From Escherichia coli (GTDB lineage Bacteria > Pseudomonadota > Gammaproteobacteria > Enterobacterales > Enterobacteriaceae), in assembly GCF_003790525.1 (NCBI RefSeq), contig NZ_CP033635.1: a DNA stretch of 64,000 bases; one strand, 5' to 3'. A program made the position numbers and the translations under genes. The notes below the pieces were generated by a model that saw only the letters and a program-made list of their open reading frames with translations, was not told the origin of the DNA and ran no database searches. Below, piece by piece: positions 12,790 to 64,000 of this stretch (position 1 is its first letter; each line of letters begins with the position of its first letter).

Positions 12790-12905
12790 GCAAACGCAAA
12801 ACTGCCTGATGCGCTATGCTTATCAGGCCTACGAGGTTTCTGCAATGTATTGAATTTGCATGTTTTTGTAGGCCGGATAAGGCGTTCACGCCGCATCCGG
12901 CATGA
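12790..12905. repeat. REP element cluster
   Basis: gcctgatgcgctatgcttatcaggcctac ... taggccggataaggcgttcacgccgcatccggca REP units between yqjG and yqjF. Confidence 0.55.
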
Positions 12906-52448: not shown

Positions 52449-53765
52449 ATGGCCGTCAATCTTACTGAAACAGCCATCCGAGCATTGAAAGCAAAAAAGA
52501 CATCGTTCTATGTCTGGAGCAACAGCTCTCAACGTGGCACTGGACGACTTGGTGTCAAAGTTCAGCCTTCTGGCAGCAAGATTTTCTATTTCCGCTATTA
52601 CGTGGAAAAAGGGAAAAAAGAAAGATTCATTCAATTGGGTATATGGCCTGAGATGAAACTGGCCACAGCGAATGAACTGACAAAAAAGTATGGTGCCTGG
52701 CTCATTGAAGGAAAGGATCCCCAGGCAGAACTGGAACGACAACAGTTTGCAGAACAGCAGCGGATACAACTCCATCAATCACAGGGCTCATTTGAAGCAT
52801 TGATTCATGGTTATGTTAACAAAATGAAAATTGATAATAAGAGGACATGGCAGGATGTTCTGAAACGCCTTGAAAATGAATGCTATACAGTGATCCCCCG
52901 TGAAACTAAAGCTAAAGATGTGACTTCCGGACAGATTAAACATATCCTGGCCGGGATCATTCAGCGCGGTGCTGTGGTTCACTCTAACCGGATCCGTTCT
53001 TACCTGATGGCTGCATTTAACTATGGACTGAAAGCAGATAACGATCCGATGAACACAAGTGTAGGGATTACTTTTGGGCTGGAGGCAAATCCGGTGTCAG
53101 TGATACCGAAACAGTCATCTGCTGAAAAAGTCGGTGATACCTGGCTGACACTTGAAGAGTTGCGTTTTCTAATGGAACATTTTGCTGAAGCAACCAACGT
53201 TGGATTATTGATGCAACATTTGATCCGATTCTGTATCTATACCGGAGGGCAACGTCCTTTCGAAATGATCGCCAGTCAGTGGTGTGATGTTGATTTTCAA
53301 CAAAAAACGCTGCTGGTGACTGCTGATGTCTCTAAAAATAAACGAGAGCATTTGATACCGTTGACTGAATCAGCATTACAGGAATTATCCTGTGTGCAGG
53401 AGTTAACAAAAGAAAAATCCAGCCCTTACATTTTTCCACTTTCGACTAATGGTAAGCGTCCGGTTCGTACGGACAGTCTGGCTCGCGCTATCATGTATTT
53501 CCGGGCTTTTAATCCTGACTTTAAAATTTTTACAGCACGTGACTTACGTCGGACCTGTAAAACGTTAATGGGAGAAGCTGGGATCAGTAAGGAAATCCGC
53601 GATCGTATTCAAAATCATGCGTTGAACGATGTCAGTTCAAAACATTATGATCGATACGATTATTTGCCAGAAAAACGCAGAGCACTTGAGATCTGGGAGG
53701 ACCGGGTTAATAACTATCAACAGCAAACAGGCAATAATGTTGTCAATCTGTTTGGCAGAAGGTGA
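52449..53765 (+). CDS. P4-type tyrosine recombinase / phage integrase
   Basis: 438-aa ORF MAVNLTETAIRALKAKKTSFYVWSNSSQRGTGRLGVKVQPSGSKIFYFRYYV... (typical N-terminal arm-binding region of P4-like integrases); the C-terminal region contains R, H and Y residues compatible with a tyrosine-recombinase catalytic core; adjacent to the tRNA fragment. Confidence 0.9.
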   Translation: MAVNLTETAIRALKAKKTSFYVWSNSSQRGTGRLGVKVQPSGSKIFYFRYYVEKGKKERFIQLGIWPEMKLATANELTKKYGAWLIEGKDPQAELERQQFAEQQRIQLHQSQGSFEALIHGYVNKMKIDNKRTWQDVLKRLENECYTVIPRETKAKDVTSGQIKHILAGIIQRGAVVHSNRIRSYLMAAFNYGLKADNDPMNTSVGITFGLEANPVSVIPKQSSAEKVGDTWLTLEELRFLMEHFAEATNVGLLMQHLIRFCIYTGGQRPFEMIASQWCDVDFQQKTLLVTADVSKNKREHLIPLTESALQELSCVQELTKEKSSPYIFPLSTNGKRPVRTDSLARAIMYFRAFNPDFKIFTARDLRRTCKTLMGEAGISKEIRDRIQNHALNDVSSKHYDRYDYLPEKRRALEIWEDRVNNYQQQTGNNVVNLFGRR

Positions 53766-60366: not shown

Positions 60367-60561
60367 CGACGTCAGGTGATGCATAAGGGCCTTTCGCTGA
60401 GAGGCCCTGTTTACACAATTAAATAAGTCGAACCCGACCAGCAATTTTGACGTTGACGGCAGGATTATTGAGGGGCAATCAATGTGTTCTTCGGCAGCGA
60501 TTACGGTAGTGAACGGACCTGCTGTCTGAATGGTATCGATCCGCAAGCGTATCTGCGCCAT

Positions 60562-61650
60562 TGGATTTGCCCCTATATTTCCAGACACCTGTTATCACTT
60601 AACCCATTACTGGCCCGCTGCCGTAGATATTCCCGTGGCGAGCGATAACCCAGTGCACTATGCGGATGCCATTCGTTATAATGCTCGAACGCCTCTGCAA
60701 GGTTCTTTGCTGCCGTTAACCCGTCTGGTTTGGGCATGATACTGATGTAATCACGCTTTATCGTTTTCACGAAGCTCTCTGCTATGCCGTTACTCTCCGG
60801 ACTCCGCACCGCCGTGTTCTTCGGTTCAAGTCCCAGCATCCGGGCGAACTGGCGTGTTTCATTAGCCCGGTAGCATGAACCATTATCCGTCAGCCACTCC
60901 ACTGGAGATGTCGGAAGCTCGCTGCCGAAGCGGCGTTCCACCGCTCCCAGCATGACGTCCTGTACTGTTTCACTGTCGAAGCCGCCCGTAGTGACCGCCC
61001 AGTGCAGTGCCTCACGGTCACAGCAGTCCAGCGCGAACGTGACCCCCAGTTTTTCTCCGTTATCACAGCGGAACTCGAACCCGTCAGAGCACCATCGTTG
61101 ATTGCTTTCTTTCACGGCCACTTTGCCAGTATGTGCCCGTTTCGATGGCGGTACAGCGGTTTTTCGCTCAAGCAACAGCGCATTCTGGCGCATGATCCGG
61201 TAAACACGTTTGGCATTGATAGCAGGCATACCATCAAGTTCGGCCTGTCTGCGAAGCAGCGCCCATACCCGACGATAACCATACGTGGGCAGCTCTCCGA
61301 TAACATGGTGTATACGGAGAAGCACATCCGTATCATCTGAGTGACGGCTGCGGCGACCATCTTTCCAGTCATCGGTTCGTCTGAGAATGACGTGCAACTG
61401 CGCACGCGACACCCGGAGACAACGGCTGACTAAGCTTACTCCCCATCCCCGGGCAACAAGGGAGACCGTCATTCCCGGTTCAAAGCTCTGCTGAACAATA
61501 GCGATCTTTTCCTGTGTAGTACGCCGTCTGCGTTTCTCCGGCCCTAAGACATCAATCATCTGTTCTCCAATGACTAGTCTAGAAACTAGTATTAAGACTA
61601 TCACTTATTTAAGTGATATTGATTGTCTGGAGATTCAGGGGGCCAGTCTA
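60562..61650 (-). mobile_element. IS2 (IS3 family) with internal deletion of about 240 bp
   Basis: IS2 terminal sequences recognised at both ends (minus-strand 5' TAGACTGGCCCCCTGAATCTCCAGACAA... and ...GGGGCAAATCCA 3'). Length about 1089 bp versus 1331 bp for intact IS2. Confidence 0.85.
60573..61559 (-). CDS. insCD: IS2 transposase derivative: in-frame fusion of InsC N-terminus (about 37 aa) to InsD
   Basis: Product [37 protein letters not shown]|[24 protein letters not shown]... with DDE integrase core. The junction lies between similar VAR/IAR codons; the native -1 frameshift region is missing. Confidence 0.8.
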
Positions 61651-61984
61651 TATATCAATTAATCATTAGTTTAAAAGCTTGTTCAACTGCATACATCATT
61701 AGCGTTTAAGCCAGTGAACAGGAAGTTTACTGGCTTAATTACAGTAATATAGTGTATCGCTATGCTCACTGAGTCTTAGATCTCCACCGTCGGTCTAATA
61801 TTCGCACTCCTGCTAACAACCGGTAATCAAATCGTCCTCCGGTATTGAAAGTTAATACACAAATCAGGATGATGGAGGCTCATACTGGTACAGCGCGACC
61901 ACTTATGCAGGCGTCTCTGTCAGGTTTGTTGCCCGGATCACCCGCATCAGGGACAGGGCTGTTCAGTTATCCGCAGGAGAAAAT

Positions 61985-62995
61985 ATGTCACTCAAGGCTA
62001 TCGCCGCCGAACTCGGGATCTCTGTCACCACAGTCAGCCGGGCGCTTGGCGGATTTTCGGACGTTTCCGCTTCGACCCGTGCACGTGTAGAAGCGGAAGC
62101 TCGGCGTCGTGGTTATCGCCCGAATACCCTGGCAAGACGTCTCAAAACCGGTAAAACCGATGCGGTCGGCCTGGTCTTCCCTGAACATGCTGTACTGTTC
62201 AGCAGTAGTGTGTTTGTGGATATGGTCAGTTGTATCAGCCGGGAACTGGTCCGCCATGATATTGACTTACTGCTGATAGCCGATGATGAACGGGCTGACA
62301 GCCACAGCTATATGCGTCTGGTCGAAAGCCGCCGGGTTGATGCCCTTATCGTGGCGCACACGATGGATAATGACCCGCGTCTTACACACCTGCAGGAGGC
62401 CGGTATTCCGTTTCTGGCACTCGGTCAGGTGCCGTCCGGTCTTCCCTGTGCCTGGTTTGACTTTGATAACCATGCAGGAACCTGGCAGGCCACACAGCAC
62501 CTGATTGCCCTGGGCCATCAGCGAATTGCCCTGCTGAGTGAGGACAACTCCCGTGCCTATGTCACTGCACGACGTCAGGGATGGCGCGATGCCCTGAGTG
62601 AACATGGTCTGCCTGAGACCTGGCTACGCCGGGTCTCTCCCACCCGACGCTCAGGTTTCCAGGCAGTGACTGAGTTAATGTCACTTCCGCTTCCCCCGAC
62701 GGCCATTATTACCGACAGTGACCTGATCGGTGATGGCGCGGCCATGTCGCTGCAGTTATCCGGTCATCTGTCCGGAGAGGATGCCGTCTCTCTTGTGGTT
62801 TATGATGGTCTGCCGCAGGACAGTATTATTGAACAGGATGTGGCTGCAGTTCTTCAGTCAACACGACATCGCGTCGGTCGTCAGATTGCCGACATGATAC
62901 GCCAGCTGGTCACGAATGTTTCACCTGAAATGCTACAAGTACTCTGGCAGCCGGAATTTCATCCTGGCAAGACAACGCTTGCTCCCTCCGCCTGA
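61985..62995 (+). CDS. LacI-family transcriptional repressor (RafR-like)
   Basis: 336-aa ORF MSLKAIAAELGISVTTVSRALGGFSDVSASTRARVEAEARRRGYRPNTLARRL... with N-terminal LacI HTH and periplasmic-binding-protein-like body; directly upstream of an alpha-galactosidase gene. Confidence 0.7.
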   Translation: MSLKAIAAELGISVTTVSRALGGFSDVSASTRARVEAEARRRGYRPNTLARRLKTGKTDAVGLVFPEHAVLFSSSVFVDMVSCISRELVRHDIDLLLIADDERADSHSYMRLVESRRVDALIVAHTMDNDPRLTHLQEAGIPFLALGQVPSGLPCAWFDFDNHAGTWQATQHLIALGHQRIALLSEDNSRAYVTARRQGWRDALSEHGLPETWLRRVSPTRRSGFQAVTELMSLPLPPTAIITDSDLIGDGAAMSLQLSGHLSGEDAVSLVVYDGLPQDSIIEQDVAAVLQSTRHRVGRQIADMIRQLVTNVSPEMLQVLWQPEFHPGKTTLAPSA

Positions 62996-63088: not shown

Positions 63089-64000
63089 ATGGAACCGATG
63101 TACCGCAGGCTGACCAGTCCCCACTCAGACCTGATTATTAAAACCCACCCGTATGCAGAGATTGTCTGGTGGGGATCCACCCTGAAACACTTTTCACCGG
63201 ATGACTGTATCAGCCTGGAAAGGCCGGTTGCGAATGGTCGTCTGGATACCGACACCCCACTGACGCTGATGGCCGAAAACGGCGCGGGACTTTTTGGCTC
63301 GCCGGGGCTGGAGGGACACCGCAACGGGCTGGATGCGTCCCCTGTGTTCCGTACCATCAGCGTGGTACAGGCCGGAGAATCACTCACCCTGACCAGTGAG
63401 GATGCAGTGGCGGGTCTGCGCATGGTCAGTGAACTGGTGCTGACATCGTCCGGTGTGCTGAAGATGCGTCATGCCCTGACGAACCTCCGTGAAGGGGACT
63501 GGCAGGTGAACCGCTTCGCCATCACGCTCCCTGTGGCTGAAAGGGCAGAGGAAGTCATGGCCTTCCACGGACGCTGGACTCGTGAGTTTCAGCCGCACAG
63601 GGTCCGTCTCACACATGACGGTTTTGTGCTGGAGAACCGCCGGGGCCGCACGTCCCATGAGCATTTTCCGGCACTGATTGCCGGTGCCCCCGGTTTCTCA
63701 GAACAGCAGGGCGAGGTGTGGGCCGTACATCTGGGCTGGAGTGGCAACCATCGCATGAAATGTGAGGTCAAAACTGACGGACGGCGTTACCTCCAGGCGG
63801 AAGCACTGTGGATGCCCGGAGAAAAAGCCCTGAAGAAGGATGAGACCGTGTACACGCCGTGGCTGTACGCCAGCTATTCCCCGGAGGGGCTCAATGGTAT
63901 GAGTCAGCAGTACCACCGTTTTCTGCGCGATGAAATCATCCGTTTTCCTGAGCAGAAACCCCGTCCGGTGCACCTCAATACCTGGGAAGGTATTTATTTT
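63089..64000 (+). CDS. alpha-galactosidase, GH36 (RafA-like), 3' end outside window
   Basis: Open frame from ATG 63089 to the window end: MEPMYRRLTSPHSDLIIKTHPYAEIVWWG...RPVHLNTWEGIYF (GH36 N-terminal domain pattern). Not in the ORF track because there is no stop within the window. Confidence 0.7.
   Translation, partial: MEPMYRRLTSPHSDLIIKTHPYAEIVWWGSTLKHFSPDDCISLERPVANGRLDTDTPLTLMAENGAGLFGSPGLEGHRNGLDASPVFRTISVVQAGESLTLTSEDAVAGLRMVSELVLTSSGVLKMRHALTNLREGDWQVNRFAITLPVAERAEEVMAFHGRWTREFQPHRVRLTHDGFVLENRRGRTSHEHFPALIAGAPGFSEQQGEVWAVHLGWSGNHRMKCEVKTDGRRYLQAEALWMPGEKALKKDETVYTPWLYASYSPEGLNGMSQQYHRFLRDEIIRFPEQKPRPVHLNTWEGIYF

Follow-up and report, generated by a model that had tools for sequence, protein, structure and literature searches.

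The element at positions 60562-61650 is, on the best explanation of the evidence as a whole, very probably a non-autonomous deletion derivative of IS2 (IS3 family). It lies on the minus strand of the window (the whole 64,000-nucleotide stretch of DNA that was analysed), is 1089 bp long, and has both terminal inverted repeats intact. One IS2 end, TGGATTTGCCCCTATATTTCCAGACA, is found at 60562-60587 (+) and the other, TAGACTGGCCCCCTGAATCTCCAGACA, at 61624-61650 (-). In each case there are no mismatches, the match is the only one in the window, and 100 shuffles produced none. Further IS2 ends were sought across the window; there are none besides these two. Features of the locus are as follows.

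60484..60561, plus strand: C-terminal remnant of an IS66-family transposase, 78 bp (translation ...NGIDPQAYLRH), abutting IRR and with a YagK/YfjJ gene on its other side
60562..61650, minus strand: deleted IS2 element of 1089 bp, IRL on the raf side and IRR on the side of the IS66 remnant; placed by its exact ends and by alignment with the K-12 copy
60562..60602, minus strand: IRR, placed by exact end match
60573..61559, minus strand: 328-aa InsC'-InsD fusion ORF with an ATG start, WP_001354443.1; from translation, Pfam, and RefSeq annotation
61449..61462, minus strand: deletion junction, with the sole surviving repeat copy CCCTTGTTGCCCGG; comparison with the parent copy in strain CFSAN061769 (L004) shows that the left-copy sequence is kept
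61609..61650, minus strand: IRL, placed by exact end match; extent of ~41-42 bp taken from PMC3219604
61651..61984, no strand: flank from IRL to the raf regulator gene, ending ...TTGATATA at the IS2 boundary
61985..62995, plus strand: LacI-family regulator (rafR-like), the first gene of the raf cluster; ORF, WP_000053329.1, Pfam LacI/Peripla_BP

The alignment reference was IS2A of E. coli K-12 (1331 bp, NC_000913.3 381260-382590; locus L003:1761-3091). The only gap is one of 242 bp, at IS2 positions 189-430; of the 1089 aligned bases, 40 are mismatched (96.3% identity, 3.7% divergence). By ISfinder convention, copies of the same IS share ~95% nucleotide identity, and the window copy is above this level. 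Both inverted repeats are specific to IS2. Each carries one substitution relative to K-12, and both substitutions also occur in full-length copies elsewhere. That in IRL (position 29) is present in CFSAN061769 (L004) and L024, and that in IRR (position 1305) is common to all full-length copies of the same IS2 variant. Full-length members of this variant lineage include L004, L005, L022, L023, and L024. With K-12 IS2A, the window copy shares gene order, the DDE core, and the orfA start codon, in addition to both repeats. It differs in having no positions 189-430, no separate orfA and orfB, no A6G window, and no 5-bp target duplication.

In the closest full-length relatives, the segment missing here is bounded by 14-bp direct repeats, CCCTTGTTGCCCGG (IS2 position 189) and CCCTTATTGCCCGG (position 431), which are 242 bp apart. 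The repeats are alike at 13 of 14 bases and have an 8-bp perfect core, TTGCCCGG. A repeat-bounded 242-bp loss of this kind reads as the classic footprint of slipped-strand or short-homology deletion. Note that 242 is 3 x 80 + 2. Hence, loss of this many bases has exactly the effect on reading frame of the programmed -1 frameshift. The A6G motif at which that frameshift occurs (IS2 position 409) is itself within the deleted segment, and a single fused ORF remains in place of the orfA/orfB pair. InsC residues 1-37 (...MTVSLVAR) are joined to InsD from GWGVSLV.... Relative to OrfAB of the CFSAN061769 parent (409 aa, translated with the frameshift at A6G), the 328-aa product is missing residues 38-118 and has one substitution, T74S in fusion numbering.

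These results bear out the initial annotation, made from the letters of the sequence. It had recognized both IS2 termini and a length about 240 bp short of the canonical 1331 bp. It had also proposed an in-frame deletion that removed most of OrfA and the -1 frameshift window, leaving one 328-aa ORF with about 37 residues of InsC, joined at similar short sequences (SLVAR / IARGW). Mapping of the endpoints makes each of these claims exact, and the similar sequences correspond to the imperfect 14-bp repeat.

Thus described, the element has what is expected of a deletion derivative: both ends kept, a repeat-bounded internal loss, and a full-length parent identifiable at the same site. Conversely, it lacks three defining features of autonomous IS2, namely the frameshift arrangement, complete DNA-binding and oligomerisation modules, and a target duplication. 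Internal-deletion relics of insertion sequences are commonplace. Like other non-autonomous derivatives (defective copies and, at the extreme, MITE-like elements), the window copy has kept its ends and lost internal coding sequence, and could move at best in trans. It differs from them in that only 18% of the element is lost and a long ORF happens to survive. Hence, annotation pipelines call it an intact 'IS3 family transposase'.

Flanking sequences and the missing target duplication

The element is inside a genomic island that begins with a tyrosine integrase (52449-53765) adjoining nfeF. Left of IS2, the island carries P4-like genes, encoding an AlpA-type regulator and proteins of the inovirus-Gp2-family and YagK/YfjJ types. 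The raf cargo occupies the right-hand side and consists of a LacI-type regulator, alpha-galactosidase, LacY-type permease (MFS), GH32 invertase and, further on, a carbohydrate porin. The neighbouring genes had already been described as raf-like, and this assignment stands. A raf operon that includes the RafY porin has been described on plasmid pRSD2 and has been linked to chicken-associated E. coli (PMC12987596). Island-free strains have the ileX tRNA between nfeF and mug. A tRNA scan (ARAGORN) of the whole 64-kb window found none. Hence, the ileX/tRNA end of the island is beyond position 64000. The sole Rfam hit in the window is the sRNA ES036 (CssrF), at 12825-12865 (-), with 38.4 bits against a gathering score of 37.6 bits.

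On the IRR side, the IS66 remnant is annotated by PGAP as a partial pseudogene in L002 and in CFSAN061769 (L004), and longer versions of it occur in strains VTB96926v (L018) and ET734 (L019). On the IRL side, the flank at 61651..61984 is 100% identical in L001, L002, L004, and L019, and is present in 257 genomes. The 5 bp next to the element, on the plus strand, are GCCAT (60557-60561) and TATAT (61651-61655). There is no target-site duplication, as had been concluded from flanks read as about gccat and tatat.

Two other genomes bear on this loss. Strain CFSAN061769 carries a 1331-bp IS2, annotated with its programmed frameshift, at the same site and with the same flanks on both sides (NZ_CP042969.1 668234-669564; L004:6001-7331). 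Since this full-length copy has the same non-matching flanks, loss of the duplication is older than the internal deletion. Strain ET734 (L019) has the raf cluster and no IS2. Its raf flank, ending ...TTGATATA, is 100% identical to that of the window over 350 bp. It is followed by 118 bp and then by ATGGCGCAG / ATGGCGCAGATAC, the sequence that abuts IRR in the window. The 118 bp comprise the C-terminal end of the IS66-family transposase remnant (...LPEWPSNLL...) plus sequence beyond. Hence, the IS2 copy in the window replaces 118 bp of the IS66-family remnant region. An IS-linked rearrangement had been suggested to explain the missing duplication; this is supported, with the qualification that the event was small (118 bp) and preceded the internal deletion.

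Two routes fit these observations. Either a small stretch adjacent to IS2 was deleted after it had inserted, or two IS2 copies inserted 118 bp apart recombined with each other. The second route, in which homologous recombination between separate insertions, each with its own target duplication, takes the place of a transposase-mediated adjacent deletion, is a serious possibility, though we put its chance somewhat below even. Flank swapping and SNP mosaics, evident in the alleles of L022 and L023 at positions 1-188 and in conversion patches in L004 and L028, argue for it. Against this, the end product, with one IS2 replacing 118 bp of ET734, is identical to that of adjacent deletion. Note that recombination is a sub-alternative inside the explanation of the element as a deletion derivative, and not a competitor to it.

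Other elements meet the raf flank at this boundary. In plasmid pF11-3 (NZ_CP184146.1; L020:8081-9420), a different IS2-group element, 69% identical to IS2, abuts the flank at the same nucleotide (...TTGATATA). In ET734, the end of the IS66-family remnant meets the flank at the position occupied by IS2 in the window. Three different elements at one raf-flank boundary suggest either a site favoured for insertion or a long-standing boundary between modules.

Distribution and exchange of the deleted allele

Copies of 1089 bp that are 100% identical to the window occur at loci L001, L002, L006, L007 (strain 2452), L009, L011, L013, and L017. We counted the deletion more broadly with a 40-bp query centred on the junction, on which full-length IS2 cannot seed a match (the longest shared exact run is 27 bases). 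This replaced a 96-bp junction-spanning query, for which counts were unusable because BLAST joined both halves on full-length IS2. Of 5,426 complete E. coli genomes, 249 contain the junction; its 257 places are all chromosomal, with a median of 1 and a maximum of 3 per genome. The eight places in excess of genomes may reflect rare mobilisation of the deleted element in trans. Independent recurrence of the deletion was sought among ~23,000 IS2 places and none was found at another IS2 lineage or site. Hence, the deletion was one historical event, and not the product of a recurrent hot spot. The protein, WP_001354443.1, is recorded on at least 1000 contigs.

Comparison of related copies points to repeated exchange. 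Relative to the full-length copy of CFSAN061769, the window copy is identical at positions 1-188 and has seven substitutions, clustered at 504-672. Given this patch of alleles, the CFSAN061769 copy could be a gene-conversion 'repair' rather than an untouched ancestor. A junction query with K-12-type alleles matched one genome, that of strain 2900, at the same locus with the same flanks. The strain 2900 copy (NZ_CP103633.1; L028:3826-4914) has the same 242-bp deletion and 14 substitutions in two K-12-type patches, at positions 133-193 and 672-847. The pattern of patches indicates gene conversion with other copies of IS2 as donors, in the course of which the missing segment was not regained. In strains VE-F5 and TUM12357 (L022 and L023), a full-length IS2 shares the IRR flank of the window copy (the IS66 remnant) but has different IRL flanks and differs in its alleles at positions 1-188. 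SNP mosaics are present in the IS2 copies of L004, L022, L023, and L028. IS2 copies at the raf/IS66-remnant locus exchange both flanks and sequence, as VE-F5 and TUM12357 show directly.

Arrangements around the deleted copy were sampled from contigs that encode the exact 328-aa protein, and fell into 10 distinct contexts. One is that of the window, with raf, deleted IS2, then the IS66 remnant and YagK. In another, found in strain 2452 and others, the order is raf, deleted IS2, and a second, diverged copy of phoH-pgaDCBA in a serX island. In strain 2452 (NZ_CP031833.1, ~2.811-2.881 Mb; L007, L026, and L027) this serX tRNA island is ~70 kb and contains raf, the deleted IS2, phoH-pgaDCBA at the IRR end, and a GGDEF gene. 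The native dgcT-pgaABCD-phoH-efeB locus is just beyond the island, so that there are two phoH copies. The phoH' flank begins precisely where IRR ends. For the deleted copy to have acquired it, either recombination with another IS2 copy or, once the deletion had occurred, an end-specific event is needed. Recombination at a point to the right of the deletion, with a different IS2 copy as partner, would explain it and requires no transposase. A large ileX-phoH inversion was considered as the origin of this context and rejected, because in strain 2452 the ileX site is empty and the serX island carries a second phoH-pga of its own. A query combining IRR with the phoH flank was unfit for counting this context, because phoH is a core gene and hits to the flank alone reach the 80% coverage mark.

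Truncated copies also occur. The deleted IS2 is cut at element position 65 by an IS26-bounded resistance module (with an Antibiotic_NAT-type acetyltransferase) in L010 and L012, which keep positions 65-1089, and at position 55 by IS5 in L014, which keeps 55-1089. These cuts remove the IRL end and replace the raf side. In DAX4 (NZ_CP126343.1, 1.13-1.17 Mb; L029), the whole integrase-to-raf module, with the deleted IS2, is near ssrA/smpB. In DAX4, IS2 occurs at 18 places and the deletion junction at two; the second junction was sought within 20 kb of the first and was not found there. At least one original flank is kept in all 10 contexts, and among them a search for fresh-site copies with a 5-bp duplication found none. 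Hence, the sampled contexts hold no evidence of transposition by the deleted element.

The history that we propose is as follows. A full-length IS2 of the variant lineage, ~3.7% diverged from K-12 IS2A, would once have sat between the raf cluster and the IS66-family remnant, within the genomic island. Its target duplication would already have gone, with removal of 118 bp of the adjoining remnant, before the internal deletion. Later, a single loss of IS2 positions 189-430 between the 14-bp repeats, probably by replication slippage or short-homology recombination, would have joined orfA codon 37 to orfB and so created the one 328-aa ORF. The relic would then have been inherited, and have spread, together with the raf island. 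With both inverted repeats kept, mobilisation in trans would be possible in principle. Its sequence certainly offers other IS2 copies portable homology with which to recombine or undergo gene conversion.

Coding capacity of the fused reading frame

Pfam domains in the 328-aa fusion are listed below, by residue.

8-42: HTH_Tnp_1, matching only model positions 2-36 of 75
82-130: HTH_21
151-254: rve, E = 1.1e-18
243-308: rve_3, E = 3.9e-18

The DDE (rve) catalytic core is present, both by Pfam and by residue alignment; the triad D159, D225, and E261 of the fusion corresponds to D240, D306, and E342 of OrfAB. The N-terminus is incomplete. In OrfAB, the DNA-binding domain is a three-helix bundle of residues 13-58, comprising helix 1 (13-26), helix 2 (32-38), a turn (39-42), and recognition helix 3 (43-58), and a leucine-zipper-like oligomerisation motif occupies residues 73-100 (Lewis et al. 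2011, PMC3219604). With residues 38-118 gone, the fusion keeps helix 1, most of helix 2, the middle region, and the complete DDE core. The deletion takes the HTH turn, the recognition helix, the leucine-zipper-like motif, and the slippery site, and OrfA cannot be made.

The lost modules are those in which point mutations are most damaging. Substitutions S44N and L58I in OrfAB abolish DNA binding; L58I also abolishes transposition, and S44N reduces it by 80-85% (PMC3219604). Substitutions in the leucine-zipper-like motif, such as L97H, all but abolish IS2 transposition (PMC3219604). Hence, to judge from these published mutants of the full-length protein, the fusion is most likely unable to recognise IS2 ends or to multimerise, and so would be no working transposase. 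The initial annotation had called the product 'probably inactive or dysregulated', a view that this reasoning from the mutants supports. Expression of IS2 is driven by a weak extended -10 promoter located in IRL (PMC3219604); a consensus promoter scan did not pick this promoter up.

The fusion might instead have been kept because it affects other IS2 copies in trans, whether by inhibiting them in the manner of OrfB or by modulating them through a chimeric HTH; it would then be a domesticated regulator and not a dead relic. We regard this as improbable. None of the copies examined has a broken ORF, not even that of strain 2900 (98.7% identical), and an HTH-like pattern is preserved at the junction. 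In addition, OrfB of IS3 reportedly inhibits transposition. However, the copies are near-identical (0-2 SNPs), so that integrity of the ORF is uninformative on selection, and the variation in strain 2900 was imported by gene conversion. Furthermore, the IS26 and IS5 truncations occur without apparent penalty, and the oligomerisation motif required for mixed complexes is missing.

A more specific proposal concerns the junction itself. The 14-bp repeats encode L-V-A-R and L-I-A-R, each closing the first helix of an HTH-like motif ([LI][VI]ARxxGV). Read directly from the sequence, the deletion joins two such motifs in register (SLVAR followed by QHGV, and LIAR followed by GWGV). The resulting HTH-like signature, V35-A36-R37-G-W-G40-V-S, may confer some residual DNA binding. 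There is a slim chance that the 328-aa protein has a chimeric but foldable HTH with a new recognition helix and, made constitutively in the absence of OrfA, inhibits or modulates other IS2 copies in trans or binds some other DNA target. If so, the locus would hold a domesticated transposase fragment, and this could explain why the deleted allele far outnumbers the full-length allele at the locus.

It is very unlikely that the fusion is a constitutively made active, or hyperactive, transposase that needs neither the rare frameshift nor OrfA. The single ORF, the intact DDE triad, and the intact inverted repeats would be compatible with this. Normally, OrfAB is a low-frequency product of slippage at A6G (PMC3219604). 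Engineered, frame-fused OrfAB (A7G) is an active IS2 transposase and, like the natural fusion, is a single OrfA-OrfB ORF that needs no ribosomal frameshifting (Lewis et al. 2011, PMC3219604). The two differ in that the engineered protein has all 409 residues, whereas the natural fusion has lost 38-118 and, with them, the recognition helix and leucine-zipper-like motif in which single substitutions abolish binding, transposition, or both. The distribution of the allele also argues against activity: a median of one copy per genome, an original flank in every sampled context, and no new-site copy with a target duplication among those contexts.

Finally, an assembly or sequencing artefact of a full-length IS2 has next to no chance of accounting for the short length, and is ruled out, since the identical 1089-bp sequence recurs in many complete genomes obtained independently, by different laboratories and from different hosts and countries.

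Implications for IS2 and the raf island

The element is a defective IS2 relic of an ordinary sort, common to many genomes and situated at an island junction prone to recombination. A literature search found no paper describing the deleted IS2 allele or its link to the raf island. The allele is already in public databases, under a generic name; RefSeq labels WP_001354443.1 'IS3 family transposase' with no pseudogene flag. General knowledge of IS2 is unchanged by this copy. It does call for a correction of annotation, since the protein is called an intact transposase in hundreds of genomes, yet is without DNA-recognition and oligomerisation modules. Censuses of insertion sequences that count WP_001354443.1 as active IS2 are slightly wrong. 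The locus illustrates short-repeat deletion within an insertion sequence, loss of the target duplication via a small adjacent deletion, and the way in which IS copies undergo gene conversion or exchange their flanks. The 40-bp junction, being unique, offers a clean means of following the raf (raffinose-utilisation) island lineage through E. coli.
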